Made by a program: the position numbers and the translations under genes. DNA of 63,223 bases, counting the filler, from Sluysia triapertura (lineage: Eukaryota), in NCBI GenBank assembly GCA_046118255.1. It is 5 parts of 5 records of this genome, joined end to end, with 100 filler letters (N's around TTAATTAATTAA, not from the genome) between each part and the next. Parts side by side here need not be neighbours in the genome. Positions count along the whole stretch, not along the records: positions 1 to 12,554 come from JBJNIA010099545.1; positions 12,655 to 23,532 come from JBJNIA010192174.1; positions 23,633 to 38,793 come from JBJNIA010236555.1; positions 38,894 to 51,834 come from JBJNIA010070951.1; positions 51,935 to 63,223 come from JBJNIA010186314.1. One strand, written 5' to 3'. Below are positions 1 to 57,260 of this stretch, in pieces (position 1 is the stretch's first letter; each line of letters opens with the position of its first letter). The notes below the pieces were generated by a model. That model was not told the DNA's origin. It ran no database searches and saw only the letters and a program-made list of their open reading frames with translations.

Positions 1-833
1 ATCACTGTAATTACTGATTTTATTAAATCTGTCTTTACTAATTGTTTCGTACACAATGACTGTATTATGGATTAAAAAGTTTGAAATGTCCGATAAATTG
101 AATGTGGCTCCAAATAATCTATCAATCGATGTAACTACAAAATCAAGATTATCAATGATGGGATAGATGAAATAACTCATTACGTGATTAGTAGAAATAA
201 CATAAACATTTATTTCAACCTTTATAATAAATGCAATATCGAGTAAACCATCTGCATACGATATTGTCGATTCATTATAAAGAGATAAAAATAATAAATA
301 AATGTACAACACGTACTAACATATTATCTTGTACTACAAATTTTAAATCGTCTTTATCATAAACAGTAATTAATAATTTAAATGAAATGGTATCACTCTC
401 TTTAATATTGCCGTACCCTTTGAGAAATTCAATCCAGAGATTCATAGCTTCGCATACTTTATTCATTTGACTTACTGTAACATTACTTTTTAAAATTTTA
501 GACCGATGTTTATGTGTATTACGTGGGTATAATAACTCAAAAATGTAAATTTTAAACAACTTTTTAAGCTGTTTTACAACTGAAATAATGTACCGTATAT
601 TGTGTACGCATTTAATAAAACATCGTATCATCAACTTGAAATATTTGAATTTCGTATATACATCCATAATTGAGAAATTACATAAATTGCCGTTGTTAAC
701 ATAAAATTTATATTCAAATCGTTTGCATCCGCTAGATTCACTAAATTACTTATACAAGATATGACTAAATATCCATTATTAGTGACAATAACTATGGTCG
801 AAATAAACATAATTTTTGATTTAGTCAAAACAT
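1..833 (-). pseudogene. Frameshifted orphan ORF of cassette copy 1
   Basis: ATGTTT at 833, ~165 bp from the CCAAT pair; overlapping ORF pieces 631-828 and 275-667. Confidence 0.5.
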
Positions 834-993
834 AATGATTTTTATTTCAAAGCCAAGTTCAAGATTGCATCGTGAGTCTCCGTACATTTGTTTGTGTTTT
901 TGATATTTCTCCAACTCTGAAAATTTAGTTAAACAATTTTGTAAATATTTTATTGAATTGTTACCTGAAAATTTTGCATGTAAGCTATTTATT

Positions 994-1057
994 ATTAGTC
1001 ATCCAATCAGAAAGACGTATATGTGGATAATCAGTGTAAACTGATTGGACGGCTAAT
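994..1057. promoter_or_regulatory. Inverted CCAAT-box pair
   Basis: ATTAGTCATCCAATCAG (994-1010) / CTGATTGGACGGCTAAT (1041-1057), 15/17 complementary. Confidence 0.6.
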
Positions 1058-3027
1058 ATTAGAACTATAATTAAAAATCGCACTACAATGATTGTGATGA
1101 GCCATCATCAGTATTGACATAAATGTATTTACAATGACAAGTATTGTCAATACTAGTGATGGTAGATACTATTAAAATTATAAAATTTATTGTTTTTAAT
1201 AATAATAAAATGATAACAACAAGATGTTATTATAATTGTTGTTATTACAAAAATGCTTAATTCTTTATTTCTTTGTAAAACATGAGCTTGCTTTTAATAC
1301 TTTCATAATTCTCAACATATTTTAAATCTAAATGAAATGAAAAATGATGAATTTGAATGTAGTAACAACAATAATAAGATGCACGACGCTCTAGTTATTG
1401 TTGTTATTGCATTGCATAGGCTTGAATTCTTTAAAACTGTACATAGTCTTCCTTTAATTCTTCTAGATTTCGTGACATATTGGAATAAATTTAAAGTATA
1501 TTTGAAACTAAAATTTCTGAATAAGACTAGTTTAAATGATAAACGTTTTAAGGTATGATAGGAGTTGTATGTTGTTTCATGAAATGGAGAATGTTAGAAT
1601 GAGTTCTTAGATGGTGATTTGAGTATTGGAAGATCGTGAATAAAAGACCTATTGAGAGGAGTGTAATTTTGTAAATGTGAAGAGGTAAGCTACAATACAA
1701 CTTTTGGTATATTTGAAATCTTATTGTGTAATGTTTTATGTGATTTGTTTATTTGTTGTTTTTGAATGGTATTGTGTTGTGTTGTTGGTGACTATCCGGA
1801 GACAAATGGTGAATTTAAGGTGAATATTATCTGGTTGTTATGGATGTCGAGTTACATGTTTTTGATAGGTTTAAGTTGGTGTAAGTTAATTGTATTAGAT
1901 GTAACTGTGGTTTATATGTTATGAGATTGTGAATATGGCTTAGTTTAGCAGATGAACTGTTTTGTAAGTGTGTAGGATGTAAGTGTGTGAATATCAAAGT
2001 GTTGAAGATTTAATAAATTTTTTTTAAAATTTTAACGGTTATAAAGGTTGTCCACCACAAGAAGTTTGAGGATTCAACAGAAGCACGGTAAGAACGAAAA
2101 ACCCATTTTCTATTTTCGGTAGGTATTTAGTCTGTACATTTTATAGATGTCATTTTAAAATAGGAATTACCATAAATGTGGAAGTTCTTTTTGGATTTAA
2201 TGTAATCAAAATCTCTTGTCAAAATATTAGATCATGTTCTTCTTCCGTGTTTATTTCGAATAATTTTAAAACGATGTGCCATATGCTCTGTGATTTATCA
2301 ATTAATATTAAAATTTTAAATAATTATTTCATAATTAATATTAAACGTTACCACAAACTAGTTTCAATAAAATTAAATAAAACCTCCACACGAATATTTT
2401 TGCCTCGAGCTTTTCTGTTTCGTTTTGTTAATATTTTGTTTCTATTTATTGATGTCTTATATAAGAATTTACTTATCAGCACTGTTTTTTCTGTAATTTT
2501 TATTAAGTTTTTAAACGAAAATAATTAAATTTATTACATTGTTTATTTGTAAAATAAGTAAATTTAAGTTATTTATCAAATAATTTTGTAAATAAGTATT
2601 ATTTATTATTGCAATACTAAATTTAATTTCTATGATTCCGAGTAATCAAATATCAATGAAATTGTAGTTGATGCACATTTGCACGTGTTCTGTATATTTA
2701 ACCATTTGACCTTCCAATTATTTGGTAAATTTCTTTTAAAAATTCTCTGCTTTTTTGTTTTACAATTTAATTACACATTAAATTTTGATTATAAGTGACA
2801 AAACAAAATTGACGAAAGTATATTTTCTTCAATATTCATTGATAATTTAATAATTAACCATACATTACTGTCTTACATTTCTTACACTAATATTAAGTAA
2901 TGAGTAAATAAAAAAATAAATTAGACTGATTAATAATAGTAAATTAATCATAAATCTAAATATAAAACAAAACTCCTATATATTTTGTAAAACATGAAAT
3001 AAAAAGTAAATGATATATTTAACTTAC

Positions 3028-3057
3028 ATGGTGGTCTCAATATTAGATTAATAACAT
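3028..3057 (-). CDS. 30-nt symmetric phase-1 micro-exon (DVINLILRPP) of the same gene
   Basis: tattag|ATGTT...CACCAT|gtaagt; phase joins the 3698 donor without a stop. Confidence 0.55.
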
Positions 3058-8745: not shown

Positions 8746-9950
8746 AAGAAAATGTACATCATTAAGTAATTCGTAACCTTTGAAATCATAACAAGTTAAA
8801 ATCTGTACGTGAAGGTATCTATTAAAAATATACGCTGAGATGAATCCGATAATGTTAATGTCTATAATTGGAAACTTAACTTTAATTAACAGTTTTACGA
8901 TTTTAGTATTTTATGAGGTTGAATATTGTTAATAAGACTATGAGAGTTGAGTTAGCTCTAAATATTGATATTCCTAGATGTGTTTTGAATTGAGTTCAAA
9001 TTGAGATTTGGGTATGTGTGTGTACATACAGGTGATAAAGTATAATCGCTGGTAGGGGCTGAAACACACCACATACACTTTCGCATTATTCTAATTGGTA
9101 CTAGTTTTACTTAAATTACATTCTACTATAATTTTTATCAGGAAGTGCTGGATTTTAAAATTATTAATTATAAAATTATTAATTTATACGCATCGACATT
9201 TTTATTTTTATTTTGAATTCTTGAATTTGAAATTTTATTTTATACATTTATATTTATTTAAATTTAGATTTTTCTTTTATATATTTATTAACTTGTGCAA
9301 TATTATTATTATTATTGTTTGTGTAATTGAAATATCTAAATAATAATTGATTAATAATTTGATTTTACCATATGGACTCTGACAGATAGGCCTGATATGT
9401 TATTCTTTTGGTGATCTAGTTTGCGTTCCTAGTACTAATCTTATATGAGAAATGAAGTTAAATTTTGTTAGCTACTTTTTTGATTACAAATCTTAGTATT
9501 ACAATTGCTAATAAGGAACCCTACATTTAATTCAAACAAAAATAAATTTATGTATTGAAAATGGAAACAAATTACTCACAAACACCTCATTTGATATGCT
9601 TATTATCACCAATCTGGATTGATAAACTTGATCCTTCATGCTGCACCTGAACTTGAAATTATATGTGCTATTAGATTATTTAGTTTCATATAAGAAATGA
9701 AATTTTTCTGCCAATATTTTGATTCCATAACGCTGGTCTTTCATTTATTTTGTTCCATTTTCGTTTTATGTAATAATTTCTAATGAATATTAATATTATT
9801 TTTCATAATGAAAATCAGATATGGTGATCACTTACTTAAAAAATCATACTTTATTAAGCAAGAATTTACCAGTTCTGCTATAAAATTTGAGATATTTGCA
9901 TATAAGACTCAACGTGATTATTAAATATTAAGTATTAATTTTCTCTTCAG

Positions 9951-10308
9951 TATGGACCAATTTCCAGAAGTGTGTTCGTCGATGCTCAGTGAATTTACTG
10001 CACTGCTGTCTTATCAACCTTGTCCATTAACTAAATACAGAATTTGTCGATTACTTATGATCAATATGTTCATGATCGATTATGTTTGCAAGCAAACTCT
10101 TGCACTTCTTTCTACAGCAGCTGCTAGCTCATCACCTTCAGTTCTTGGTGGATCGGTCAATATCAATCACAATTCTGTTGCTACTACTTCTAGTTCTGCC
10201 AGTAATACATGCCAATTTATGCGTACCGTTCATCAAGACCAAGCTTCTAGAATGACAATGGACTTCTTTGCTATCATATGTCAAAGAGCTGTTGAAATTT
10301 TCAAAGAA
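9951..10308 (+). CDS. SMG6: SMG6/EST1A internal exon (EST1/14-3-3-like region)
   Basis: MDQFPEVCSSMLSEFTALL...PCPL...RLLMINMF resembles the SMG6 F..V....L.EF..LL...P.P....L..INMF segment; cag| acceptor and |gttagt donor. Confidence 0.85.
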
Positions 10309-10381
10309 GTTAGTTATTCATATTTTGAATTATAATTTAAATGATTATTCAAACTGTGTCATTTAATTTATTTATATTCAG

Positions 10382-10750
10382 TGGCAACAAAACACATCTG
10401 AAACAGATTCAATTACAAATTCACTAACTCTTCCAGATGATTTGAGATCTTTACTCACAGCGATATGCTTATGGACAGACTGGATGGTCACACGGCCAGA
10501 ATACTGGAACCCACCACCAAGTCAACGTGATCCTCTTTTACCACCTAGTATTGATGATTTTCAAATTCTTGCCCAACTTTGTACACTTATTAGTAATTTT
10601 CTCGATCAGGTTACCTTCGCATCTCCAAAATATCGCATTATCACAAACACTAAAGAAGCTGAACAAATGATTGGACACAGCAGTACATTTGTATTATTTG
10701 AAGAATATTTAATTTGTGGTTTCTTACCAATGTTAGATCAAAATCCGAAA
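10382..10750 (+). CDS. SMG6: SMG6/EST1A internal exon
   Basis: LWTDWMVTRPEYWNPPP and LFEEYLICGFLPML match the SMG6 W.DWM...P..WNPPP and L.ED..L.GF.PL motifs; 73-nt phase-0 intron before it; |gtaagt donor. Confidence 0.9.
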
Positions 10751-11399
10751 GTAAGTACATTGTGTAGAAATTATAATAAAAATAAAAGCGTTTTAGAATG
10801 TTTTCATTTTAAAGGTATTTCACAATTTTCATTTCTTATTTCTCATTGACCAATCATAAAAATCTAGATAGTTCTATTTTTTCAAAGATATAAAGCAGAA
10901 GTGGGTATTGAATATAGAAGATGCATGCAAAATAAAGAATAAGTTATACTTGAAAAATTCCAAATATATCTGGATAAATATATTTATATTTACAACATAA
11001 ATCAAATACAGTAATAAACATTTATTGCTATATTCTTATCTAATCGTTAAATTAACATAGGCCAATTATGTTTAAATAATATGTTGAAGCAAGACACTAC
11101 AACCTCTTTGAATAACTTCATTAGAAAGGTTTCCTAAATTTTTGGAACATTAATATTTCCTCATCTTAACATGGACTAAAACAATGTTACATCGCATTTC
11201 TTATATTTGGTCACCAATAACAAGGTCTGATCAATTCTGTCATCTTAGGAGTATCAATATTACTTTGATGTGTTATTTCCAATATTTATTTTCTGAACAG
11301 CAAGAAAGTATATTTTGTTAAATCTCTATATTTCATATTCCATAGTTACCGAATATTTCAACGATTAATTGATTGTTATGCATGATTTTACTTTTAAAT

Positions 11400-12654: not shown

Positions 12655-13150
12655 TCTAAAATAACACTCAAAATCTATTTTGAACCTTGCCGCTATCATT
12701 TATCGATAGCGTATTAAAATATTTTACAAAAATCATTTTATCCAGATTATTTATAAAATAATCTAGCTCAATATTATATATTTTTTTTATTTTATATTAT
12801 CATTTGTATCATATACATTTTTTGAATTAATCAAAATTACATTTTTTAAGTATTTATTGTAACATTTGAAACTGGTTCCTTTGTGAATCATATTAAAATA
12901 ATTAACAGGTTCATTTTCATTGAACCTAATTAAAATCTTAAAGCTAAAAGGTTCGTATAAGCGAATCTTATTAAAATCTCGTGATTACATTTTTAAAATC
13001 ACTTAAACTTCTTAAAATCTAAAATAAAAAGACCTCCTAAAAGCAAATTAATTGATCATAATAAATTAGGTTTTTCTTTAATAGTTAATTTTGAAAATCC
13101 AACGGTTGGCCATTAAATTCGTAAGTCCAATACGTTGGTGGACTCACTTC
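12655..13150 (+). repeat. Palindrome-array block R, copy A
   Basis: Three ~40-bp units GGTTC-N6-10-GAAYC-NN-ATTAAAAT at 12873-12979; hairpins at 12691-12711 and 12744-12764; aligns with rc 25245-25790. Confidence 0.75.
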
Positions 13151-25790: not shown

Positions 25791-27839
25791 AATAAAATTA
25801 TACGTACGCAATATTAAAATTGCTAAAAAGCCTTAACAAAAGTAACTAACGATAATTTTCGAAGTGTAAATCTGAATGTAAGTGTAGATGGACTGAAATT
25901 AGATAGCTTGAATTGAATCTCGAAGATTGATACGAATATATTTTGTGTGTTAGTATGAAAATTTAACGATTTAAACATTAAAAGGTCACTAGTTATTTTA
26001 AACAATAAAAGGTTAAAAGTAGAAACAATTTTTTTGTATTCCAAATAAAAATAATTTAAAAATTTTATTATTAATAAAATTATTACTTACTTTAAAATTT
26101 CCAAACTAATATCAATTATTTAAATTTTTAAATCTAATATCAATTATTGTTACATATCGATAATTAATCTAAAAATAGTTTATTAATACACACTCACATT
26201 AACTTTAAACAACTTTATAAATGTCGATCGATATATTATATAAACTCTTCTTATTTAGACTTAGTTTATACATTGTTAATGTATTGTTCTTTTTGGTGGT
26301 GGTGTTTCGGGGCGCCAGGACCCTTTCTGAGACACGACCTCGGCATGCTACGTTGAGTTCCTCTATTTACTCTTAATAATGATGCACTAATAGCTTACTT
26401 TGTTTAAAATTTAGTTCAATCGAAAATATTTATTTTTTATAAATGAGTAGTAGTATAAATGTTTAATATTATGGCAATTTGTTATGGACGTTGAGTCCTT
26501 TTATTGTATCTGTTCTTATATGTATTCGCTAGTTTTAACTCTATTCAGGATCTCATTCAATCAGAAATATCTATCTATAAAATCGTGAGTTTTATACTCA
26601 TCTCGGTTGTTCGAGACGAAAGTGCCTAACAAAGTGTTTATTCTCCAAAATGGTACAAATTTTATTTAATTAAATTACTGTTTATCTAGCTTTATGAAAT
26701 TTTATTCTACTTTATGAAACTTAATTCGATTTCGTATACATTTTATTTCAACCTATATTTTACTCAATAATTCCTTATTGTAATTTCGTTATTCTATAAT
26801 ACACTGTTTTCAATTCCCAAAGATGAACAAATCAATTACGCAATGTAAATAAAATGAAATTGATTTATCATTCAGACGAAATAAATAAAATAATAATAAT
26901 AAAATTTAACACTCACTGTAAATAAATATGTTACAATTGTTCTACACTGAATGGATTCAATCAGATGATTGTAAATTATAGTTCACAAATGACTTTGTTT
27001 CTGATTTTTGTATTTGCAAATTAGAATCAACGAATAAATTTTGTCTTATGAGTTATTAAGAATCTATCCACAATTTAACTATCCGATCAATTTGATCCAC
27101 AAATATCATACGATTATTCTTGCTAATCTTCACTAATATTTATATACAGCCAAATAAATAATATTGCATTAAATTTTTGATATTTATTAATAATAAATAC
27201 TGGCACTTCATTCTATATATACTTCTATATAATTCTATATATACTTCATTCTACTATATAATTCATTAATTAATTTTTAACCTGAATGATTTGTTTATGT
27301 TAAATTGTTATTTTATTCCATCTCAATTTAAGTTATTCGTTTTGCCATTTCTGTTTTGAGTGTTATTGTTTATTTAAGTTTTATTATTTCAAGATAAATA
27401 CATATATTTTGAATTTGTAGTTTTTTTCAAGTTTTTATACTTGTATATTTATATTTGTGGCCACAAAAGGTATAGAAGCTCCACAAATTGTATGTTTTAA
27501 TGTATATTGAAACTATCACGAGTATATTCTGCCGGGCAGCGAATGGGTGAATAGTAAATTTTTAGTAACACTTTATATATTATTTCACTATTTATTTTAC
27601 TACTGTTAGTCTTGAATTGAAATAAGAAAATATCTCAAAAATACCCTTAAATTAAAGAGTAAACAGAAATGTAAAAAGCGTGAGTGGAACTCATCACACT
27701 TAATTAATGTACAACTTGAAAAAGTTTAATATTACATAGATTAGTGTGGTGAAATCAGTGTTAAAATAATGTTTTTGGACTTAAATGAATCTTAAACTTA
27801 CACTTGTATTAATTTTGATTCGTTTATTTTAATTTTCAG

Positions 27840-32230: not shown

Positions 32231-32231
<1 letters not shown>

Positions 32232-32232
32232 G

Positions 32233-37820: not shown

Positions 37821-37862
37821 GTTATTCTTATTATTTTAAATATTTTCTATAATTATCTTTAG

Positions 37863-38281
37863 AGAATGTTTCCAATTGACAATGCTTATGATATCTATCC
37901 AGTAAGAGCTTCTTTCATAATATACAATCAGTCAGATTTTTCTGTTAATACATTATTGTCTCCTGATTCAACAAGTGTTATGTCAGCCACTCAGTATTCT
38001 GGATCTACTACTGTTCCTAGTAAAACTGTTTCTACTATTCTCGTGGAACAGTCCATAAATATTCCACCAACTCCTAGCATTATTCAACGTGCTGCTCCTT
38101 CTTTAGCTCGATCTACATCATACAATGTACGTCCATATTCATCAAGTACTGATCGTGACGCCATTTATTCACTTTGCTTCCACTTGATAACTAGTAGAAT
38201 CACTCAGACTATGGGTCATGTTAATATTGATTGGCAGAATTGGTTTGATAATGAACTACTTCTCAGTTTACCTGGTGATAG
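37863..38281 (+). CDS. OGA: O-GlcNAcase exon, start of the pseudo-HAT domain
   Basis: RMFPID...YNVRPYSSSTDRDAIYSLC...LPGDR; 42-nt intron before it; AG|gttcgt donor; gene continues beyond the contig. Confidence 0.88.
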
Positions 38282-38793
38282 GTTCGTTTTTACAAATTTT
38301 TATTTGCTATTTATTCTGAACCGTTTTACTCGGTACTTTCAAGAAGTATTCGTTGTAAGTATACATTATGCACTGTTGCGTACTTCAAATATGGAAATAT
38401 AGTGACGGACTAGGGAGTAAGTCGAGCTTTAGAAATAAAAATCAAGTAATGAAAATTGTTTATGTATAAACAATGATTAAAGACTCGATAGTTGCATAAG
38501 TGATGAAACCACGCATTATAGTTAAGTATGATGAAATCAACGTGAATATGTAGAGCAAGAAGTTAAACATGTAGAGTAGGGTAAGTTTGCTTTTGCACAA
38601 ACTATGGCGACAATTAAATATACATCTGAGTGAGCTAAGTTGTGTGACATATTAATATTTACCGTAAGCAAGCCACGTTGTAAATTTTCTCATCAAGTAA
38701 GTTTATTTCAATTTTATTATAATTTTCTGGATATGTTTGGTAGTTAATCTTGCAAGTAAATTATTGATAAAATTATGTTTCATATTAAACATA

Positions 38794-39842: not shown

Positions 39843-39854
39843 TTCTATAATAAT

Positions 39855-39970
39855 ATTAGACTTCGTAAATTGGACCGACCGATGATCGAACCCGAGGCAC
39901 TGAGCTGTCAGCCCCGTCTAACAATTTTTAGATTACTATAGTCAATTGTACTACATGGCACTTTAGGTCT
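39855..39970 (-). repeat. Second, internally deleted copy of the tRNA-like repeat
   Basis: Partial A box and B box at 39871-39915, plus flanks shared with 37385-37525. Confidence 0.75.
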
Positions 39971-40009: not shown

Positions 40010-40345
40010 TGACTTCAAAGGCTTTCTAAATCATTTTCAAACTTCAATAAGGCCTCAACACCTTATATAGGTCTTTCGAATGCCAAGGTATTCTTTATAG
40101 ATGTTATTATTATAGATGTTTTTACTTTCACGATTCTTATTTCGACAGTGTTTATAATGTTCAATCCATCAATTTGAACCCGTTCTCTCTTCATATTGTA
40201 GCTCCATATGTTTCTCCCTCATTTCCTAATACACAATTTGGAATACCAATTCTTCCAACTTTCTTTTTTGCTTAATTATATAGAGAACTGTTTGAGCACA
40301 AACTCTGTATTCTTCCGAAAGTTTCGTTGTGGATTTACCTTTTTC
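40010..40345 (-). mobile_element. Non-LTR RT relic (RTE-like)
   Basis: KGKSTT, MREKHME and DLEK fragments in RT domain order. Confidence 0.35.
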
Positions 40346-40694
40346 AATCATTACATTTAACTGAAGTTTTTGTTTCACAATCAGTACGACTATTTAGCGA
40401 TTAATTTAACATTTCTATAGGTTATTTTTCTAAAATAATTTAAAATTTAAAATAATTTTTAAAAAATTTAATTTTAATTAAAATTTTAATTATCATAAGG
40501 TATTTTAAACCTAAAGAAAAATATACAATACATACCGGTAAATCAATATCAAATCAATAAAATTAAAATTATACTTAAATAAATAGATAGATGCGTATTT
40601 GTTTAAACAATTATGCATTTTCTAAATATTATCCACGGATAATCGGGAGTTTACGGTAATGTCGAAATAATTTGCATGCACATACCGTAGTAAG

Positions 40695-41965: not shown

Positions 41966-42609
41966 TCTTAACTATTTTGCTAAGTAGGTATCTTTTAAAA
42001 CAGAACCGTCGCATATTTTTTGCTAACATATTTTAGAATTTTGGATAATAAAATTTGGTAACGTTAGTTGGTATTTATAATTTGATATAAGCGTATAATT
42101 AACATTTGAGAACTTCTTAGAACGTATATATTTAAGGTTGTTTGACCACATTACAACCTACGATAAAATTATACAAGTTTTGACAGAAATCTATATTAAA
42201 CGAATTTCGTAATATATGTCATAGTAAAAGACATTCTATACTTTAATCGTGCTTTCACATTACTTACAGATACGCCATTGGTAAGTCGTATACTGTAAGT
42301 GGACTCTGAATATTAATTTATTTTGCTGTTAGGTACGTTTTTAGTCAAAAGAAAAAATACTTTGGAATTGAGTTTATATTTAATATTGATTTCATTGTAA
42401 AATTAATACTCATTATTATTAGAAAGTACACTTTATGGTTGTTAAAATTTTGATCAAAACTCAAATTATGGTTAAAAATAATTATGAAAATTTTAAATAC
42501 CTTATAAAAAACCTATAAACAAATGAACAAAGATATGAAAATTTTTATTTAAAATTTTGAAACTTAAATGATTTAAATTTGATTTTCTCGTTCTTGACAT
42601 GAAATAGTG

Positions 42610-43560
42610 ATGATGTTCCGTCACCTAAAAACAAATTATAATTATAATTAATATTAATTAAGTAAACGAAAGTTGTTAATTTAATCTCTTTAATTTCGTG
42701 ACCTCTACGATTATTAACATAGATACGACCAAATTTGGCATAAAATATATTACTTACGATGTTAGATTCGTAGATTTTATGAAGCTCAATTTCGCAAGTG
42801 CTGTCTTTAACATCATTTGTAAAGGTAGAAGGATGTTTAGCGGTGAATCTACAGCTGTAGTTGTTAAATCCACATTTATTGTGAGTATTGATGCAGTTGT
42901 ATTTGTATTTTTGTTCGTACTTGTCTGGCGCTAATTTTTAAATAGAAGGTTATCCGATTCTTGGTTTATTTTTGTTATTTGAATATAAGTTTGAGCCGGT
43001 TTCTCATACAATTTCAAGACTTCTATACGCCGATGATAGAAAACATCAACAAAAGAATTATCATTTGACGTCAGAGTATTTTGGTTATAATTATGTTCAC
43101 AATCTTTGATTACACAATCACTAAAAACATGAATGTTGGAGAAATATTCCGTAAATTTACACTGCTTCCAAAATCTGTTTCGTACAATTTCCTTGTTAGC
43201 GACTTCAATGGTCGAACTTCATTTTGAGCAACGTGCCTCTGCAAAGAATTGGATCGATCAACAACATCTTGAATTGTAATAAGTAAGTTGCCATTCTCGA
43301 TTTTAAACCAATTTTTATCAACACTTGGTGACAATTGATCACTAACTCGAATTCTTGACGTGATAAAAGTTGAGACAATATCAGTAATTGACAAACTTCA
43401 TTTTTGTTTAGGTATACCATAACAGAATCGACATCTAATTCTATCAACGTTTTCTTGATCATCATTATTTCTTTGACTAAATCCATAAGTCTAATATTTA
43501 CGCAGTAATTAGTTGTTGATGAGACTGGCAAATCTAAATTTTGCTCGTTCAAACTTGTAC
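42610..43560 (-). pseudogene. Decayed orphan ORF, divergent from cassette copy 3
   Basis: Overlapping frameshifted ORFs 43205-43552 and 43110-43394; candidate acceptor tttttag near 42626. Confidence 0.45.
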
Positions 43561-44482
43561 TACTGTTAAAATCGTTTGGTAATTGTTTTAAGTTTTTCTC
43601 TTAATTTTTATTAGGATTAAAAAATTTTTATTTTCTTACAAATAAATTTTCTGCATCACGATCGGTTGTCCAACCTGTAATGGTCAACTCTTAATTTTTT
43701 TAAAAAAATTCGATAAAATAACTCTTAACATTCTAATATTCACATATCATCTGTACTACACCCATGGAACAATTCATCTGCCAAAGTTAAATTTTATTCA
43801 CAACCTTATAGCTTATACATCACATTTGCATCTAATACTACCAGTTTATATCAACAAATCCATCAAGAACATATTCACATTCACAGCAATCAAATAATAT
43901 CCACATTTGAAATTATTCACTTCACATCTTCAAATGAATTATAACATTTTAAATTCATCAATTATCATCACATAATCCCTAACAGCACAAAATATGATAT
44001 CACTCAAAAACAACAATAAATAAATCACATAAAACATTGCACATTAACCTTTTAAATATACCAAGAGTTATACTCTGAATTATCTTCTCACATATATCAA
44101 ACCACACTCTTCTTTGTTAAAATGTCGCTTTTGATCAGGAATTCACTTTAACATTCTACATTTTACTGTATATCATAGTATAAAATGTCAAGTATATAGG
44201 CAAAGATTTTCAGTTTAGATACATGCAGATTTATTGGGATACATTCGAAATATGTTTAGAAATTAAGAAAAGAAAAAGTAAGCTATTGTTAGTTAAGAAA
44301 ACAAGAATTTATGCATTTTTTGAATTACTTTACTTTGAAATAAAATAATATTAATAATAATAACATTATTTTATTATTAATGTTGCAAAAATTAGTATCT
44401 ACCACCACCAATATTGATACTACTCATTACAGTACATACATTTGTGTCAATATTGTGTCGAATTTTGCATTAATACTACTGG

Positions 44483-44536
44483 CATCCAATCAGAAATAAA
44501 CTCACAAAATTTCAGATAGACATTTCTGATTGGATG
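44483..44536. promoter_or_regulatory. Perfect 15-bp inverted CCAAT-box pair
   Basis: CATCCAATCAGAAAT-N24-ATTTCTGATTGGATG. Confidence 0.7.
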
Positions 44537-44706
44537 ACCAGTTAAAAATTGCTAAAAATAGAAAAAAATTACACAATTGTTAACGATTAAATATTAAATA
44601 ACAAAATTTTAAAAATTAATTTTTAATAATTATTTCGAGACCAACCATGCTTCTGATAACCGTTATAAACGTTGGCTTCAAATGGGATTACAAGACAACA
44701 AGCAGT

Positions 44707-45845
44707 ATGTTTAATTCATTGGAAATCTTCCAGCATTCTGGTAATGATTTATTTATCGAATCGCATAATGAAACATCCTGGTCTGATGTTTAAGTTAACA
44801 TGTCCACCGCGAGTAGAATACGTATGGATATTAAGATTTATTTAGTATATCAATATCTTAAGTATTATAAATCAATATTCATATTGAATCACCATAACTT
44901 TAGCAGTCTCAATAATTTGTTAATAAAAGATTACAATGTATTTCAGAAGTTGAGATTAGAGCTCAAGACTAAACCAATTAAGTTCATCATGTTAACTGTA
45001 CCAATTTCAAGTAATTTATGGCGTTTATGCTCTTCTAAATATTATAGTTTAACGAATCTAGCAGGATCGATTTCTCTATGCCAACAGCCAACAAGGTCAG
45101 CTAACAATAACCGTTCTACTTCCAACAAACCACAATTGTATTATTTAAATTACATTAAGAAATTAACATATAAAGTATCTAAAGAGCCGGACAAATACAT
45201 TTCATTTATGGACACTCAATTTTAGATCAACGGGTTTACTCGTCTAACCCATCATATTATCAAGAATCACCTTTGTGTGTTGAAATTAAATTAGTATGTA
45301 CAAGTAAAGTTCACATCTCAGTATCAAAATTAATGATTGCCAAATCAAGTATAATTAATAATGATTTCAAAAATTATGAACTCGCTAACCTCAATGACGA
45401 ATGCCTAGAATCTCACCACATGAATTGCATGGAGGTAACTTTTGCAACCAGATCTGTGTGCACAGTACATTTAGTATCGGAACGTACATTTACCTACCTA
45501 TTCGTTAATCATACAAATTCGTTCAACAGCTCATTCAATACTCAACAATCAAAAAATCGTTTTTCTATATATTCAGCAAATGGCGATTTCAAAGTATCAA
45601 GTAATGTCAAAAGTAAACACAATGCAAACGACGAAACCATATGCTCAACGCTACTATGGCGATGTACACTATATAAAGGATGCACAGTTGGTCAAGTTGA
45701 CGAACCTAGTAGCTGCAATATGAAATCAAGAAACGTAACTTTTTATTTTATTAAAATTAAAATTTCTCGTAAATTATATAACTTCTTTTTTTTCTGTTAG
45801 ATGATCATTTAGAAGTTAGACTTCACTACGTGCACAAAGGTATAG
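44707..45845 (+). pseudogene. Decayed orphan ORF with candidate 66-nt intron 45735-45800
   Basis: ATGTTT start, two in-frame stops and one frameshift; gtaact...tgttag|ATGATCAT. Confidence 0.5.
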
Positions 45846-46090
45846 TGGTCAATTGGATAATACATAATTTGATACAAAATAAAAATCTTTTGTTTGCTTA
45901 TGACTTTTTCTGTTTTCATTTAAATTAAATTTTAATTGTTGTAATGATTTTAAATGTTTAGTGCTTAGCATCAATAATAAAGATAATAATAAGGATTATA
46001 TCAATTTAATAGCAGATTCAATTAATTTATATGTGATTTTAAAAATTTTTAATCAAACAACACAAAAAAGAACATAATACTAATTTAAAT

Positions 46091-48900
46091 ATGTTAGCAC
46101 AATTAATGACAGTAATTACAATAATTTTATGTTTACCGGCTGCACAATCCATTAAGGCATTTGATTGTAAAAATACAACACATGGAGCAAAATTTTCAAT
46201 AATGGATGTAAAAAACAATGTTCAAATAAATACGTAAATACGTATCAAATAGATTTATTATACAATGCGATCGCATTTATCATATTCATCAAGAGAGAGG
46301 ATACATTTATACTAGATCATATGAATGTGCAGTATCCAGAGAGATATTAATTAGATTCTATGGATATAATCACCATGTTTCATTGATTAAACAGCCTACA
46401 GCAGAAAAATGCCTTGAAAGTCTACCAATGCACTTCAAACCCATGAAATACAAATGGACAGCAAAATAATTCTTAAAACAAAGAAATATTTGCAATAGGA
46501 AATCTAGCCTACGATGGTACTCCTGAATATGAAGAATTTTGGCTTAAAGGTAATAAATTCTACAAGCACAAGTTCTTGATAATTATACTATTGAAATTAA
46601 GAATAGTGAAACAGCTTTTGACCCAGACACAAAGACAATGTTAGAAATGTTTTTTTTTGCAAATTAAAATCATGTTTATATGGAAAATTTGCTATTGTTT
46701 GTGACGTGGAAATACAATTGCGAATGTAGTTTAGTATACTTAAGAACAGTGAACTTTTATAGAATGTTATTTTAAATAATGATAATAATGGAAAAAATGT
46801 TGTGTCTTTATTTAAATTTATTAACAATAACTCAAAATGTGTGCAAATTAATAACTACTCTGTAATCACATAAATAATAAATATTTTCAATAAGTTAATA
46901 AATAAAATACTCAAACTCCAAGAGTGATACAACACACAAAATGTTAAAGTCCTTTGTGGAATAAAAGAAATTTATGATGCGGGTGTTATGAAACCACGAT
47001 AATAATACCAAAGAATATCACTTTATGGCTTGGTCAAGTTACCAAAATGAAGCTTCAATCACAATGTTTAATGCAATTGTGTCGAAACAGTTTTCTTAAT
47101 GGGGTCAACGTTTTTCTTCACTTATATATTTGATAAAAAATAGTAGTTTGATAATTGCTAAGGAGATTAGAAATTAGAAATATATAAGTAATTACTCTAG
47201 GAAATTATTTATTCTTTTAAGTCCGTTATAAACCGACCAATTTTATAATTAAACTTCTACAAGAGTTTGTGTCGACTTCCAATTTATTATCTTCCAGCAA
47301 TGCTTACTGTTCAAATGTATCAACTTAAAATAAATATAAAATTAATTTAACACCAAATTTCTTATCCATAAAATTTTTTTTATACAATACGTCATATGTT
47401 AACCGTACCTTATAGGTCGATTTCAATAAATTGACTAATTGACATCTTAACTGAGGCTTGAACATTACAACATTATAGACAATTAATTAATATAACTTTT
47501 ATAATGCTATCCGCGTCGACGTGCTTAGCAACATCTCACAATCAATAGTATTAATGAATTTCAATATTATTCCATAGTTCGCACATTATTTTCTCATGTA
47601 CAGATATTTTTCATAAAATTATTAAACCATTCAATTTTTAATTAAATTAATTAATAAAGGTACTTTTGTATTTTCAAGAGTTCTAAAACCTTCTAAAGGG
47701 TTCTCTCTTCGTATCTTTCTTTCTTTCAAATTTAAACATTTTACACGTATATCCAATTAACAAACATAACTCGTCATAATATTTTACTTTATTCTTTTAA
47801 TAATACTTCTTAATATACAAATTTAAATTTAAAATTTAAAGAGAAAACATTAGTAGAAACAAGTGCTAATTGTATTAATTGCTAATAAATTAGGTTTAAT
47901 TGAAAAATACGATCAGACAATTTATAATACTAATTATAAAAAATATTTGTAACTAAAAGCAAAGTGAAGTAGACTAACTTTCATTGATTGCGTAAGGATG
48001 TTAATTTTATAACTCATTTTAACAATTAAGGCAAATAGAAGATTTTTATAGAGAGATTATCATTAATGATTGTAAATTAAATTGTGACATATTTCGTACA
48101 AAGTAGCATTGATTGTAAGTAATCCTAATAAGGCCACTCCAGTTATTCTGTTAGGTAAAGAAATTTTTTACAGAATAATTGAAGAATTATTACAAACTTT
48201 TACTTGTAAAGAGGTTGATATTTCTATTAACCATACTAACGAATGTACTCATGAATTTATAAAAATAAAGTTGATATTTCTATTAACCATACTAACGAAT
48301 GTACTCATGAATTTATAAAAATAAAGTTATTTATATGGAACCGGTCACAAGATTATTACTACCGAACGCATCAAAAGTTAAATGTCCACCTTTATTTGCT
48401 CCAGCTCTAGCTTTATCACCATCAAGAAACCTATAAATTATAAATTTACAAAATGATATATATTTTGATCGCATCCAAGATTTAATGAAGAATGGTTTAT
48501 ATGATTAAAAAAGCTTGAAAATATTTGTTATTTTCACAAACCCGAAACATAATTTTGACTGAAACAGCAGAAACTTCCATATGAGACATAACTGATAAAC
48601 CAAATTATGAAAGATTATTATTTTCAAAGATCACTTTGAAAAGGCAGAAAATGAAGCAATTAAAATGATATGGGGAAAAGTTTTAATTTTTGTTCAGACG
48701 ATGGCTGGTTTTACGGGATTATACTATATAATTGTTATAATAAAATTACTTTTTCAACGTGTATTGCTCACCTATGAATTATGTAAAATTATCGGTTTCA
48801 TTTGGAAACTAATTTTAGGTTGACCATTTGTTTCAAAATGTTTGCACGAAAGATTTTCTAAATTGGAAGAAACAATACTAAAATGAGTGACGAAAACAGA
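46091..48900 (+). pseudogene. Chuvirus-type/gB-like class III viral fusion glycoprotein, decayed and split by a ~1-kb insertion (about 46800-47840)
   Basis: Signal peptide then AFDC...FSIMDV; HQERGYIYTRSYECAVSR...YGYNHHVS; AIGNLAYDG; KDVNFITHFNN; FTCKEVDISINHTNECTHE; YMEPVTRLL..ASKVKC; LMKNGLY; TM WGKVLIFVQTMAGFTGLYYIIVIIK, all in the expected order. Confidence 0.75.
48214..48328. repeat. Perfect 56-bp tandem duplication
   Basis: GTTGATATTTCTATTAACC...ATAAAAATAAA twice. Confidence 0.95.
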
Positions 48901-50602
48901 AATTGAAAAAATTGAATTAAATGCTAAATTATCACGTTAAAGGAAATCTTAGAAAAAGATCAGAATCTATCCAGAGATTACACATACATTATGTAATGAT
49001 AATAAATCATCTCAACAATATGTAAATGTAGTATCTGAACGAAATAAAATAGAGATAATATTAATAATCTCTCGCAATATTTCTTTTGATACTTAAAATA
49101 AATTTTATTCTGAGTTATTTATCTATTGTGAACACAATCTTTCTTTTACATAACTTATTTTAATACATTTAATACTTAATTTATTTCATTAAATATCGCA
49201 ATAATTTAAATTGATATTAACATTGATTATGCATTAATAATTAAATCGTTAATAAAAATATTTATATTTATTAATTAATTTCAAATTATAATTTTAGTTC
49301 AGAATGGTGTATGAGAAGGTAAAAGAAATTCTTTAAATAGAAGAACATAAAGTTAAAGATTCAGTTAAAGGTTTGGTTCCGAATGATTTGTGGTTACTCA
49401 AACTTCCGAATTCATGCTTAATTTCAAAAAATATTTCGAAAAAAACCAAAAAAGCGTAAAATATATTGAAAAATGATGCTTATAAAATGCTTGTGAATAT
49501 TAAAATAATACTTATTTCCTTTCTATAGTAAAGTATTATAATAATAAATCTCATTAAATTGTAATTAATTTTGTAAAAGAACTTTAGACATAATGATCAT
49601 TCTTCATTTTGAAATAAACTTATTTTTAATAAAATAAATTCATTCTAATAAAATAATTGTTAAAATTAGTAAGATTATCAATTTAAAATGAGATTACATA
49701 CAGTTACTATAAATTCAAAATTTAATAACAAGTGTTAATGTATTTTTAGAATTCTTAGTATTTTATAAAATTTAAAAAATTTTATAAATAAATATTTAAA
49801 ATAATATTATTAATTAAAAAATATTGTGAAATAAAATTATCAAATTGAATTGAAATTATTATTAAATTAAAACCTTTTAATTTTATTAAATATTAAAAAT
49901 TTTGAAATTATTATTAAAAATTTATAAATAAATAAATATTTAAAATAATATTATTAATTAAAAAATTTTTAAATTTAAACACTTTAAAAGTTTTATCACT
50001 AAACAAAATTACCATAGCTACTGTGTATAAACATAAAATACTATATAAGGAATGAAAAATTATAGTATTGTACACACGTATTATTAATTTTTTTAAAGAA
50101 GATTACATTTAAGAAACAGAAGGCATAAAATTTTAGCAGCGATCTTATTTGTATAAATAGAATTACAGTTTGATCAAGAATAAGAAGATATTCATATTTA
50201 AGACGGCATTTACAAAACAGAAAATATAGAATTTTTGTATAATAAGGAATAACAGTTTGATTGTTAGTTTATTTGCATCATTAAGATAATTTTTTAAAGT
50301 GAATATAAAATATACTCAATTTATACTTAAATATTTTTTGTAATGTTTCATACCATATAAAATCTTCTTAAAAATCTAGATTATTAAATATTAATTGATA
50401 AATTAATATTTGCACTAATTATTCTTAACGTCCTATATTATTAAATTTGAACACTATATAGACAATTAATATCGCATAAAATCGTTCTGATAATTAGACA
50501 TTAATTAATAAAGTAAATAATTTCCCAATTTATTATAATGTATTATAATACATATGTTTGCTTTTTCCAAAATATATTTATTTACATAGTTTTGTATTAT
50601 TA

Positions 50603-51934: not shown

Positions 51935-54118
51935 TTTTTTTTGAGTTTTACATTTGAAATATAAATAAATAATGATAATGTAAATGATAAATATATATTA
52001 TATATATAATATACAATAAATAATAATACAAAATAAAATGTTTTATTCAATATTTACAGAAAATGGACAGTTGGGAAAAAGATCAGGCTAGGCTGCTGAA
52101 GATTGTTGAGGAAATGAATAGTGGATCAAGCAACAGTGAGTCTGAATCTGATGCTGACAGTGCTGAAAATAACAATTCGGATAGTGAAGATGATGAATCA
52201 ACTACAGATGAGGAATATGAAGCACCAGAAGAACCAGAAAATGATGAGACATGGCATACCAATACAACATCTATAAGAAACTTTTCTTTTGATGCAGATG
52301 CCGCTGGGATTCTTTTGGATATAGAAGAAAATGTTTCTCCAATTCAGGTTTTTGAAAAAATATGGGATGACCAAGTAATGGAAATGATTATAAAATCTAC
52401 GAATGATTACGGCATAAAACTTTGCAATCAAGCACGGCCACATACAAGGCATAGTAGAAAGGCAAATTTCAAAAATACTGATATGATCGAAATGAGAAAG
52501 TTTTTAGGTTTGTGTTTGCTTCAGTCCCAGCTAAAATTCTCCAGCATTAGAAAACTCTTTTCCATTGATGCATTACATTACCACCCAGCATTTCCGTCAC
52601 AAATGTCTGGAAGGAGGTTTGAGCAAATATTGAGGTGTTTTTGTGTTGAGGAAGAAAATTCAAACGACCCTTTGAGGAAAATAAAAATATTTCTTGATTT
52701 GCTCATACAAAAGTTTGCGAATGCATATGCACCAAATGAAGCATTATCATTAGATGAATCGTTGTTATTATTTCGAGGAAGGCTTTATTTTCGCACGTAC
52801 ATGAAAGGCAAAAAGGCAAAATACGGAATTAAATTCTATGAACTTTGTTCAGCCCAAGGTTACGTTTTGAATATAGAAGTATACAAAGGCCATCGAGAAA
52901 ACGATGAAAACATGACAACTATTGAAAGTCTTGTGATGCGATTGATGCAGTCATACTTAAACAAAGGCCATCATTTGTTCATGGATAATTATTACAACAG
53001 TCTACCATTGTCTAACAAATTACTTAGCAAAAAGACACATGTGACAGGAACTCTTCGTGTAAATAGGAAGGGTCTGCCACAAGAAATAACACGTCGTAAG
53101 CTTAGAAAAGGAGAACATGTATGGCGACGCCAAAATCAGACTTATGTGTCCAAATGGAAAGATAAACGGGATGTGCTATGTCTAACAACAGCTTACCACC
53201 CAAGCATGATAAACACAGCTAACCGGCGACAACAGGAAAAGAGAAAACCAATTGAAATAGTGAATTATAATCAGAATATGTCAGGTGTAGACAGAGCAGA
53301 TCAGATGATGTCCTATTATTCCTGTCCACGGAAGACAATTAGATGGTATAAAAAGGTAATCTTTCATCTACTGGATGTAGCAGTATGGAATTCTTTCTAC
53401 ATCTTTAAAGAAAAGACAGGTTCTCAAATGAAGTATATAGAGTACAGGGAAGCAATCATACGATCTCTAACTGGTATAGATAATAAACGGGATGGAAGAA
53501 CTTTGGTTCAATTTAAACGTGCACAAATCCAAACCAATGAAATCAACAACAATGGAACACAGCATTTTCCTGAGAAAATTTCACCTCCTGAAAATTATCA
53601 GCGAAAAACATATTTTCAGCGTTGTAAACAATGTTATAAACAGGGAATAAGGAAGGAAACATCATATTGCTGCAAGAATTGCATGTCAAAACCTGCACTG
53701 TGTCCTGCACCATGCTTTGAAACATGGCATACCGAAAATAATGTATAATAATTATAAAATTATAATAAATTTTTTTGTCATTTATTTATTTTTGTTTGAT
53801 TAAGAACTAACATTTCGTGTAAAACTCCCAAAAATACTTTGTTGCATACAAAAATTACTTGTTTGAACCATTAAACCTGTCATTTACGTTTTTAAATTTT
53901 TGCTGTTATAGCCGCCATCGTCCTATCACTTAGTGTATAGAGTCCGCTGGCGCCATGACGGTTATAGCCGCAACCTAATTAAAGGTACTAAATTAATCAA
54001 AATTAAGTTTATTTAAGCAGAAAGAGTAAAACTATACTTCTAACATTCTAAAAATCACAAAAACATATAGTGTCAATTTTCGAACTTCGCTTGTTCCTAC
54101 TGTCCGTCAACGTGTTAA
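51935..54118 (+). mobile_element. piggyBac element (left end lost in the gap)
   Basis: Sub-terminal repeat GTTATAGCCGC twice (about 53905 and 53961); candidate right end CCGTCAACGTG-TTAA at 54104-54118. Confidence 0.7.
52063..53748 (+). CDS. Intact piggyBac transposase (PGBD4-like), 561 aa
   Basis: Acidic N-terminus; DDD motifs SLDES, FMDNYY, GVDRADQ; C-terminal Cys-rich domain CKQC...CKNC...LC..PCF..WH. Confidence 0.97.
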   Translation: MDSWEKDQARLLKIVEEMNSGSSNSESESDADSAENNNSDSEDDESTTDEEYEAPEEPENDETWHTNTTSIRNFSFDADAAGILLDIEENVSPIQVFEKIWDDQVMEMIIKSTNDYGIKLCNQARPHTRHSRKANFKNTDMIEMRKFLGLCLLQSQLKFSSIRKLFSIDALHYHPAFPSQMSGRRFEQILRCFCVEEENSNDPLRKIKIFLDLLIQKFANAYAPNEALSLDESLLLFRGRLYFRTYMKGKKAKYGIKFYELCSAQGYVLNIEVYKGHRENDENMTTIESLVMRLMQSYLNKGHHLFMDNYYNSLPLSNKLLSKKTHVTGTLRVNRKGLPQEITRRKLRKGEHVWRRQNQTYVSKWKDKRDVLCLTTAYHPSMINTANRRQQEKRKPIEIVNYNQNMSGVDRADQMMSYYSCPRKTIRWYKKVIFHLLDVAVWNSFYIFKEKTGSQMKYIEYREAIIRSLTGIDNKRDGRTLVQFKRAQIQTNEINNNGTQHFPEKISPPENYQRKTYFQRCKQCYKQGIRKETSYCCKNCMSKPALCPAPCFETWHTENNV

Positions 54119-54299
54119 AAATCAATTTCGAAAATTGAAGATCATTTTTTAAATTATCTTTTATTAAACACTTTATTGCTAAATTAAACTTAGAACTAGA
54201 ACTATTTATTTCCATTGTCTTTAAGTATAAACATGTAATTTTGAATATGGTTTGTATCTATCTCGAATATGCCATGAGATGTTTCCAATAAATATTAAC

Positions 54300-55498
54300 T
54301 TTAAAAATTAACTTCTATCAAGATAAATAAAAATAAATTTTAAAATTACTTTTTTGAATAACTGAATCAAACGTGCTAAAAGAGCATTTATTCGATCAGA
54401 ATGTTCATTAAAATCTGCTGGATTACTAAGACTATCTTTGAATTCGTAGAATCTGTGACAATATTGACCCGTGGTGCAGTTTCGTAAAAACAAATAGCGT
54501 TCTTGTAATGTTTGTCCTCATTAGCTTAAGTCTGTAATTTTATGCTGCTACTAAAGAATAATTTTAAACGGCCAATTCTTGATTTTACATTCGACATGTT
54601 TTCCTTAGTGATTTTACTTTATTTGTCATGATAAATGAATCGATATCGATTGTCTTTTTAATAATGAATTTGTGAAAAGCTAAAAATATATTAATAAAAT
54701 TTTCTATAACTTGACCATCAATTAATCTATGAATGCTTTTATTTTCCTTTGCATTTTATAATTCGAAGAACAAACATGATTTAAACTTGATAATATAACC
54801 TTTTTATCATTTTAGTAGTCTTTAAACTGAGATGTATGAAATCGTTCTGTCAAACTTTTTGTACTTTCACTAATCTATCATAGATTTTATTAAAAGTTAA
54901 TAACTTTCGGTAGTACCTCTAATAAATCATGAAACATACTACTTAAAACTAATTCAAGCAGTTTTCTATTCATTTGGTAATTATTCTGGTCTTTAAAATA
55001 TTGTAATAAATCACATCCATTTTCATATTTACCATCTTTTATTTGCTTGTCGTTAATAGAATAAACAACGCCATCAATTTTTAAGTTATCTTTTATATAT
55101 TTGGATGACATATACAACGTAAAACTATGTCTTTTTTAAATCTATTATTGGAGTGCTATGATCATAATAATTTCGTACAAAACTAGCTTCATTAATAGTT
55201 ATAATTCTAAAACTTTACATTGTAAATTTATCATTAAAACGAGTATCAAATAACTTTACTTTATATTTTTATCAAACAGTCAACTTTGCTTGTTTGGAAT
55301 CGTAAAATTTTAATTGTTTTCACACCATTTCACAAATTTATGAATATTACATCTGCTAATCATTGGACGTCCAATCAATTGAAGTTGATTACACTCAGTA
55401 ACTGTCATTAGTCAACAATTAACACGACATGCTGGCTCAATTCATTAAAATTAAATGATTAATAAAGCAATGTCGACCATTATAATGGTCTTAATAAC

Positions 55499-55579
<81 letters not shown>

Positions 55580-56190
55580 ATATAATAAAATAAAAACATA
55601 AATCTTTGTCTTATTTGTCTTTACATGATCTTTTTTGTATCTTATCTTCTTTCTTGACACATTTAAAATTCCATAAAAATGGTTTCTTATAAAAAAATTA
55701 ATTCTTCTAAGATTCTTTTGAAAAAGACCTTGTTTAGTAATTACTAAAATATGCAATATGTATAAATTGTTGATAAGAGAATGTTTAAAGAAAATAATAC
55801 ATTACTAAAGATGTTAAACAAGTAACAATTTGATTGCATTGTTTAAAAATAATTTCAAAGTGTTGATTTAATGTTTTCAGTGATATTAAATATTATGGAA
55901 TATTATAAAATATTATAAAATATTTAAAATATTATCATATTAAATATTATAAAATATTATGGAATGTGGTTTTATGCGATATATATTAAATTAAATCTGG
56001 GATGTTTTGAATTAATTTTTAAGTAAGTCTTTGATGATTTCCAATGTTGAGTATAATTTTTGATGCTATGAAATTTTATGTCTAGATTGTTTGAAAGTAT
56101 GAAGGATTGTGAAATGTTCTGAAGAGTGATTTTGTTGTATGGCGGCATTAAAATAAAATTTTAAAATATTTGGTTGGCCACCACAGAGTA
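54300..56190 (-). mobile_element. Orphan-ORF cassette, copy 4 (more diverged)
   Basis: Same order as copy 1: decayed ORF (about 54300-55328), CCAAT at 55362-55376, (AAT)n, GT-rich segment, GGTTGGCCACCACA (56172) matching GGTTGTCCACCACA (2046). Confidence 0.5.
55500..55578. repeat. (AAT)n microsatellite
   Basis: Directly visible. Confidence 0.95.
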
Positions 56191-56844
56191 ATTCTGTAAT
56201 ATTAATATAATAATAAGAAAAGAGTATTTAATTTAATTAGACATGTATTATTATGAAATTATTATTTAAGCTATTTTTTTCCAATTGCTACTACTACTAC
56301 TATCATCATCATCATCGTGATTAATAATAATTTCTGTGCTACCAAAGATTCATTAATAAAAGCAATTGGCCAATTGAATTATGATATTTAGAATAATTGG
56401 CAAAAAGTAATAAAAATAATGAATTAAAATTGCTAAATTTAACGCTAATGTGGCACAAAAATAATTTCATGAAAATGAAACTTTGAAGATAGTCAAATTG
56501 ATCAAATCTAAATAAAATTAATGATGTTGAATTAAACTCATTTTTGTTAAAATGTAAGAATGTTAATGATGCCATAAAAATTAATTAAAACCGTTTTAAA
56601 CAAAAGTTCATTATCTAAATATCGGCTTGTCCCACCGAATAATATCTCGATTGTAGTACAAAAACTGGTTTTTTGACCCAGTAGTTTCAGTCAGTTTCAT
56701 TAAATAAATTAGATGATTTTGCGGCTCAGTAATACTAGGTGTTGGTGTTGTTAGTAGCTATATGTTATTCAATGAGCGAATGCTTGAAATAAGTGTAACA
56801 AAATTTCATCGAAGAAGCAGAATTTAATACAATAAAATGTATTG

Positions 56845-57260
56845 TGTGAGTTCACTTATGATTCTAGTCTTACCTGTTGCGACTAGTCCTTAGGATTTTC
56901 TGAGAAAATCTTAATATGGAGGTTAGATTGAGAAAAATATTCCTTTCAGAGATTAATTTCTTTATAAAATGTCTTAATGTTCGTTTAATTATATGGCTGA
57001 TTAGCCATTCTTTAGCGAGGTTATTATAACTGATTTTACATTTGATTCTATTTAAACATGATCTAAAAATTTGTAGTTTACGAAATCCGCTTGGAAAAAT
57101 CAGCTTAATTATTCAACAGGTGACTAATTTTAGCAAAAATTAAGACTATTTAAATTACATTTTACGTAGGATCCACTTTAAATGAGATCGATTAAATAAG
57201 TTTGCTTTAATCTTCAAATTATTAAATAAGATAAAATAATTAAATTCTAAAACCAATCAA
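56845..57260 (-). repeat. Diverged R-like block
   Basis: Begins GTGAGTTCAC...CTTACC...GGATTTT...GAGAAAA...TGGAGGTTA, collinear with 25247-25330. Confidence 0.55.

Follow-up and report, generated by a model that had tools for sequence, protein, structure and literature searches.

Decayed loci of Sluysia triapertura share a conserved noncoding block and are likely relics of giant retrovirus-like elements

What kind of element leaves a conserved stretch of noncoding DNA in front of proteins that have nothing recognizable in common? The question is raised by a 63,223-nucleotide stretch of the Sluysia triapertura genome (GenBank assembly GCA_046118255.1; here called the window), which consists of five contigs joined with N spacers and has a GC content of 26%. 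A preliminary description, made from the sequence alone, had located four loci on four different contigs, each with a common upstream region and an open reading frame (ORF) of about 1.0 to 1.1 kb, and had taken them for an unrecognized mobile or virus-derived cassette, possibly part of a giant long terminal repeat (LTR) element. The four loci, referred to as copies 1 to 4, do lie on separate contigs, and the remaining contig has a further block, R. We find a shared noncoding block, decayed coding frames behind it that are unrelated between copies, and, at copy 3, a broken virus-type envelope (env) gene; because this gene follows one shared block, the loci are likely relics of giant retrovirus-like elements.

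Results

The shared block lies at 985..2059 (-) in copy 1, 13133..14245 (+) in copy 2, 43676..44545 (+) in copy 3, and 55350..56185 (-) in copy 4. Copies 1 to 3 have 0.85 to 1.1 kb in common, with BLASTN identities of 62 to 66%. Copy 1 (987-2057, -) and copy 2 (13136-14243) are 66% identical over 1148 columns (E = 5e-114), copies 1 and 3 align in two blocks of 66% and 62%, and copies 2 and 3 are 64% identical. When the upstream pairs were compared with 60 dinucleotide shuffles, z-scores of 51 (copies 1 and 2), 24 (copies 1 and 3), and 9.7 (copies 2 and 3) were obtained, and the three pairs involving the diverged block of copy 4 gave weak scores of 3.4 to 7.5. The upstream similarity first noted by eye is thus firm for copies 1 to 3 and weak for copy 4.

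The block has a sharp 5' edge, TGT(G/A)(G/A)TGG.CAAC, found in copies 1, 3, and 4 (3 matches against 0.01 expected, for a pattern derived post hoc from these sites). In copy 1, the edge motif reads TGTGGTGG.CAAC, and the block further comprises a CA-rich segment, an AAT/ATT tract, and two hairpins, H1 and H2, which close its end. H2, formed by an inverted CCAAT pair, folds significantly in copies 1 to 3 on either strand (z -3.8 to -7.4; in copy 3, at 44478-44542, z -7.0) and is absent from copy 4, while only copy 1 has a significant H1 (z -3.1 and -4.1), that of copy 3 being marginal and that of copy 2 not significant. The CCAAT pair, which had been reported for all four loci, is perfect in copies 1 and 3, degenerate in copy 2, and missing in copy 4; it spans 46, 48, and 48 bp. 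It may represent two NF-Y sites or a stem. About 31 identical bases are shared by copy 1 (1627-1657, -) and copy 2 (13531-13561, +) where the rest of the block is about 70% alike, and they are missing from copy 3.

That the block is itself a decayed ORF was ruled out by the lengths of its indels, of which 6/39, 5/37, and 10/35 are divisible by 3 in the three comparisons, and by the absence of consistent codon bias: substitutions show no consistent codon periodicity, with one 61-nucleotide block at S6/N1 and the others without bias. The edge motif was considered as a tRNA primer-binding site (PBS) and rejected by eye.

Half an H2 hairpin occurs at 26553..26592 (-), upstream of the block R on the contig that lacks a cassette and in that block's orientation (z 7 to 12 to copy 3). 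A CA-rich piece at 59690-60000 (-), resembling the leader of copy 1 (z 7.5), stands beside a mariner fragment and upstream of the R of copy 4, and is a possible fifth leader remnant. These two pieces show that modules of the block also occur rearranged or alone.

Similarity ends directly behind the CCAAT hairpin, with spacer and ORF DNA at z <= 2.2 in 12/12 comparisons, so the upstream DNA is indeed more conserved than the ORF DNA. What follows is decayed coding DNA and not random noncoding flank. We determined the minimum number of breaks in each region and compared it with 200 shuffles; none of the 200 was as open in any of the four ORF regions or in the two further frames described below. 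Every one of ORFs 1 to 4, which follow the blocks of copies 1 to 4, respectively, is broken. ORF 1 (1..810, -), cut by the contig end, has 3 breaks versus 13 in shuffles, ORF 2 (14444..15843, +) 5 versus 22, ORF 3 (44707..45925, +) 4 versus 16, and the strongly decayed ORF 4 (54220..55260, -) 11 versus 17. Between the block of copy 3 and its R lies a divergently oriented decayed orphan ORF (42548..43600, -; 4 breaks versus 16). The other frame, of 409 codons and fully open, converges on the env gene and runs off the contig end (50603..51832, -); its membership in the element is uncertain. A unit of about 36 residues is repeated within this frame, which also includes an in-frame stretch rich in AT. 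A 152-codon open frame at 2070-2525 (+), divergent from copy 1, occupies the same position as the divergent ORF of copy 3 and is unrelated to it.

The proteins encoded by ORFs 1 to 4 are mutually unrelated (z <= 0.6 for all six pairs), and since no pair beats its shuffles, the weak MD.(Y/F).K-like patch once proposed as common to them is unsupported. At most copies 1 and 3 have an MF start (ATGTTT) in common: in copy 2, this motif (14431) is out of frame and meets a stop after 6 codons, the long frame beginning at the ATG at 14444, and the first ATGTTT of copy 1 (833) meets a stop after 2 codons. Likewise, the small intron expected near the end of every ORF was retained by our intron filter as a candidate in only 2/4 copies, at 15559/15562-15616 in copy 2 and 45735-45800 in copy 3, against a background of 0.11 per kb per strand. 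Spliced canonically (GT-AG), the two candidates yield IML.. and MII-stop, which disposes of the D(D)H said to follow the intron. ORF 2 does not need its intron, as the unspliced frame is open through the stretch and for 75 codons further.

No family or homologue was found for these frames. ORF 1 has no family match above the cutoff; a phmmer search with ORF 2 gave 0 matches among 1.84 billion representatives; homologue searches with the 409-codon frame and a stop-free piece of ORF 3 were without match, as were family profile scans of ORF 3 and the divergent ORF at 42548-43600. NCBIfam and PHROGs gave only subthreshold matches on 14 stop-free pieces (ORF 2 not among them). Single-sequence AlphaFold models reached a predicted local distance difference test score (pLDDT) of 30, and a Foldseek search with one of them returned nothing at E <= 0.001; these models are uninformative. 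Of 170 stop-free segments listed around the cassettes, each 48 residues or longer, 140 were scanned for domains, the other 30 having been scanned previously or being low-complexity, mariner, host gene, or reverse-frame pieces; a second scan covered 28 read-through frames. Both agree with the preliminary description that no transposase or reverse transcriptase (RT) lies inside the cassettes.

Behind copy 3, a broken gB-type env gene (46091..49030, +) begins 166 bp downstream of ORF 3 on the same strand. It has its own ATG, preceded by a stop and an AT-rich spacer, a hydrophobic N terminus, and a C-terminal membrane anchor. The gene matches PF24664 (Monjiviricetes_fusion) at E = 9.7e-11 and 40.8 bits (cutoff, 27), and a natural stop-free piece of it does so at E = 3.8e-6. 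The stretch 47120-48100 is not coding-like and is probably an insertion within env. Compared by eye with the available part of a published table of envelope proteins, env residues encoded by 46278-46388 are identical to the Smed_errantivirus_5 row at 17/37 ungapped positions, and those encoded by 46578-46640 at 9/21; one insect row and 18 nematode rows match at few positions. Among the rows so compared, the env therefore seems nearest to that of Schmidtea mediterranea errantiviruses. A PDB sequence search with env gave no match, nor did a search with its C-terminal part among longer proteins, which is weak evidence.

The preliminary description also placed a palindrome-rich block, R, upstream of three loci. 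R2 (12655..13145, +) consists of palindromic units spaced by 41 bp, followed by a GTAAG-loop hairpin that overlaps the start of copy 2; R4 (56848..57300, -), with its end hairpin, lies 0.66 kb upstream of copy 4. At copy 3, the end hairpin of R3 (42254..42306, +) has a GTAAG loop followed by GTGGACTC, and with the true end of R3 at 42306, the gap to the block is 1.37 kb and not 1.7 kb as first given. A fourth R, Rx (25248..25790, -), has no cassette after it. A 41-bp periodicity of R across the window was rejected, being present in R2 only, and only R2 and Rx have alignable bodies (z 9); those at copies 3 and 4 are not alignable.

What unites the R copies is their 3' end, where a bulged hairpin whose loop reads G|GTAAG precedes GTG(G/A)ACTC, at 13121, 25272 (-), 42281, and 56873 (-) (4 matches against 0.05 expected, post hoc). 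In this hairpin, 84.6% of cells are paired, compared with 16 to 51% in slid controls, and both sides have changed in 4/10 pairs, a count reached by 30/500 shuffles; the covariation is suggestive, given that the structure was drawn from the same four sequences. A G.U pair in 3/4 copies favors RNA on the cassette strand. The loop matches the established consensus of a 5' splice site and may have been used as a splice donor. A covariance model of the hairpin recovered its four training sites only, with none upstream of copy 1.

The block itself was found undescribed in the available portions of the literature searched (including PMC11410931, PMC8532177, PMC5408684, PMC7642597, 10.1101/2022.06.22.497255, and 10.1101/2023.08.22.554363), the primary description of Burro, Repbase, and bioRxiv supplements lying outside this search. 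Scans of viral contig collections returned 0, 0, and 1 locus, the single match being a 19-mer without further similarity, and two scans of metagenome contig collections returned 0 matches each.

Several other features accompany these loci. Host exons are represented by an SMG6-like exon (9925-10849, +; 53% identity to one unnamed protein) and an O-GlcNAcase exon (32076-38402, +). These exons mark the host as an animal, and the affinity of env together with the base composition suggests a triclad-like flatworm. Copy 4 is directly followed, on the other strand, by an intact 561-amino-acid piggyBac-type transposase (52063-53748, +; PF13843, E = 8.6e-83). A decayed non-LTR retrotransposon piece (18500-20100, +; RVT_1, E = 3.5e-7) has a C terminus that by eye looks like a restriction-like endonuclease. 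Mariner-like fragments at 28163-28959 and 59178-59561 are 79 to 89% identical to each other, and a Tc1-like terminal region occurs twice, at 20351-20572 and 24006-24242 (80% identity). A tRNA-like sequence at 37372-37526 (Rfam, E = 7.9e-5), with a related second copy at 39843-39970, is probably a tRNA-derived short interspersed nuclear element. A CENP-B N-terminal domain fragment (40229-40393, -; E = 1.1e-4) is probably a pogo/Tigger relic, and a stop-depleted orphan frame of 174 codons without family match lies at a contig end (62603-63124, -). Hammerhead ribozymes of the Penelope-like or Terminon kind were also considered; an Rfam scan of the window gave 2 matches, neither of them a ribozyme.

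Discussion

The data presented here support a mobile element related to viruses, in which the control region is conserved and the cargo nonalignable, as the preliminary description had proposed. The very high copy number that it also proposed gains no support, nor does an expression cassette, every ORF being broken; the proteins have nothing measurable in common by which faster divergence of the cargo could be told from swapping. We favor, at a probability of about 60%, the reading that the loci are decayed remnants, comprising leader or LTR and accessory genes, of several divergent families of envelope-bearing giant Ty3/gypsy elements of the Burro lineage. The gB-type env gene that adjoins copy 3 is the first positive evidence for the earlier guess at a giant LTR element. 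Membership in a giant retroelement is nevertheless unproven, as no gag, pol, LTR pair, PBS, or target site duplication (TSD) was found. Its description as unrecognized is doubtful, since Burro-type elements may have the block as their LTR or accessory region. Burro-1 is said, in 2018 work by Grohme, to have an LTR of about 5 kb that includes an AAT/TAA expansion along with three unannotated ORFs.

From the observed anatomy and decay, we envisage the following functional steps. The block would be the LTR or leader of the element, and its CCAAT pair would either serve the accessory ORF as a promoter or form a stem in the RNA. A leader splice donor in the G|GTAAG loop would give rise to subgenomic RNAs encoding the accessory and env proteins, with env expressed as an additional gene, and unspliced RNA would be the template for copying. 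Spread would occur by reverse transcription, with gag-pol supplied from elsewhere in the element or in trans. The cis-module of R hairpin, CA-rich leader, AAT tract, and twin hairpins would have been retained for transcription, splicing, or packaging, while the slot behind the hairpin would have been refilled by recombination, or have diverged beyond recognition, family by family.

A number of observations weigh against this reading. Neither the 140 segments nor the 28 read-through frames contain gag, protease, RT, or integrase (the sole RT is the non-LTR piece), the ORFs have no zinc knuckle, and pol is absent from the 2.8 kb between env and the contig end, where flatworm elements carry it. 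By eye, the block edges, with a motif that opens with TGT in copies 1, 3, and 4, show no PBS or polypurine tract; the contigs, which at 11 to 15 kb are shorter than a Burro-type element, show no LTR pair or TSD, and none has two copies in direct repeat. Env is linked to only 1/4 copies, with no trace at copies 2 and 4, copy 1 being truncated by the contig end. It appears to be a stand-alone gene, in contrast to Burro, although decay could obscure this. The planarian likeness of env was judged by eye and not computed, and the hairpin statistics come from four sequences and a structure drawn from those sequences. Finally, sense-strand introns are normally purged from retroelements, so the intron-like stretches of ORFs 2 and 3 also tell against such an origin.

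We tentatively suggest, at well below even odds, a helper-dependent Burro-derived vector family without gag-pol, in which a fixed cis-module (R hairpin with splice donor, CA-rich leader, twin hairpins) is flanked on either side by slots where intron-bearing orphan genes and a free-standing env can be exchanged. Such a family would be a cargo-swapping satellite retrovirus of flatworms, parallel to cargo-bearing nematode Mavericks.

The presence of env at a single copy would also suit a separate nonautonomous repeat, or a family of decayed host orphan genes whose promoter is conserved, to which env is an unrelated neighbor. We consider this unlikely. Other elements (piggyBac, mariner, non-LTR RT) are densely packed in the window, and the intron-like stretches of copies 2 and 3 suit DNA-level spread. 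Helentron-derived elements, moreover, have a microsatellite followed by a terminal stem-loop, a layout that the block resembles. However, no Helitron-type ends or terminal inverted repeats (TIRs) were seen, and the four ORFs lack the shared similarity expected of paralogues. Furthermore, env has an intact N terminus and starts, on the strand of ORF 3, 166 bp behind that ORF, and an inserted retroelement fragment rarely begins there.

Somewhat less probable still is a Maverick/Polinton-like DNA element with a captured planarian-type env, in which R would be the terminal repeat and the intron-bearing ORFs the cargo of a variable slot. Introns would survive DNA replication, contig 4 has genes on both strands, and nematode Mavericks, in the available part of their description, carry a gB-like fusogen and, by the left TIR, a 2- to 5-kb poorly conserved region of intron-bearing cargo (10.1101/2022.07.12.499685). 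In contrast, about 10 kb of contig 4 and the other scanned fragments gave no match to pPolB, integrase, ATPase, protease, or capsid, ORF 2 lacks any relative among the representatives searched, and R has no inverted partner on any contig, its bodies at copies 3 and 4 being unalignable. In the portion available, fusogen-bearing Polintons are reported for nematodes (10.1101/2023.08.22.554363).

That a negative-strand RNA virus left endogenized genes here, a matrix-like ORF and then a glycoprotein, is very improbable: PF24664 takes its name from Monjiviricetes glycoproteins, and arthropods commonly have insertions of such glycoproteins, but 1-kb conserved DNA leaders with microsatellites are foreign to RNA viruses, no trace of a nucleoprotein or RNA-dependent RNA polymerase was found, and the env, as far as the available rows allow a comparison by eye, resembles planarian retroelement env.

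If the favored Burro-lineage reading is true, that lineage includes families with a separate env and a rapidly exchanged accessory slot behind a structured control block. This would open a way to study how giant planarian retroelements gain extra genes and express them, and would point to a possible source of the orphan genes of flatworms. For annotating such relics, the edge motif and the covarying R hairpin would serve as probes. As all copies here are dead, their interest is evolutionary.

Captured envelope genes and exchangeable ORFs have parallels in several systems, each compared here from partial accounts. Anakin BEL/Pao elements of mosquitoes have also captured a gB-type glycoprotein (PMC7642597), and bdelloid LTR elements with an exchangeable ORF3 have heterogeneous extra ORFs among related families (PMC5408684); unlike our loci, both have complete gag-pol, small LTRs, and extra ORFs with recognizable homologues. 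Nematode Mavericks with MFUS-1 share the stand-alone gB-like fusogen with signal peptide and the variable intron-bearing cargo next to a conserved terminus (10.1101/2022.07.12.499685), whereas our loci yielded neither a Maverick core gene nor a TIR pair.

Closer are the errantiviruses of Platyhelminthes, Nematoda, and Bryozoa with GAG-ENV-POL order; those of flatworms, in the part of the account available, have env of the gB type only (PMC13524379). Copy 3 likewise has a gag-sized ORF in gag position with a gB-type env next, but ORF 3 lacks both a zinc knuckle and a match to gag profiles, and env is not followed by pol. The same source lists six S. mediterranea errantiviruses of 14.5 to 18 kb each. 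Errantiviruses 1 to 6 are probably Burro, since this size fits the 4,873-amino-acid Burro ORF.

The closest comparison is with Burro/GYPSM1 of Schmidtea and Dugesia. According to the available portion of its description, Burro has thousands of copies, accessory ORFs, tandem repeats, and env in frame within the 4,873-amino-acid ORF, and it decays to fragments ridden with stops and frameshifts in Dugesia japonica (PMC6431247). The Sluysia loci differ in that env has its own ATG and a signal-like N terminus instead of lying in frame in a polyprotein of about 4,900 amino acids, in that they yielded no gag, pol, BIR, MATH, or BCL2 domain, and in that the accessory ORFs have intron-like stretches and are wholly unlike between copies. 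They have in common with Burro a gB-type env (17/37 positions by eye), accessory ORFs, tandem repeats, many decayed fragments, and an AT-rich genome.

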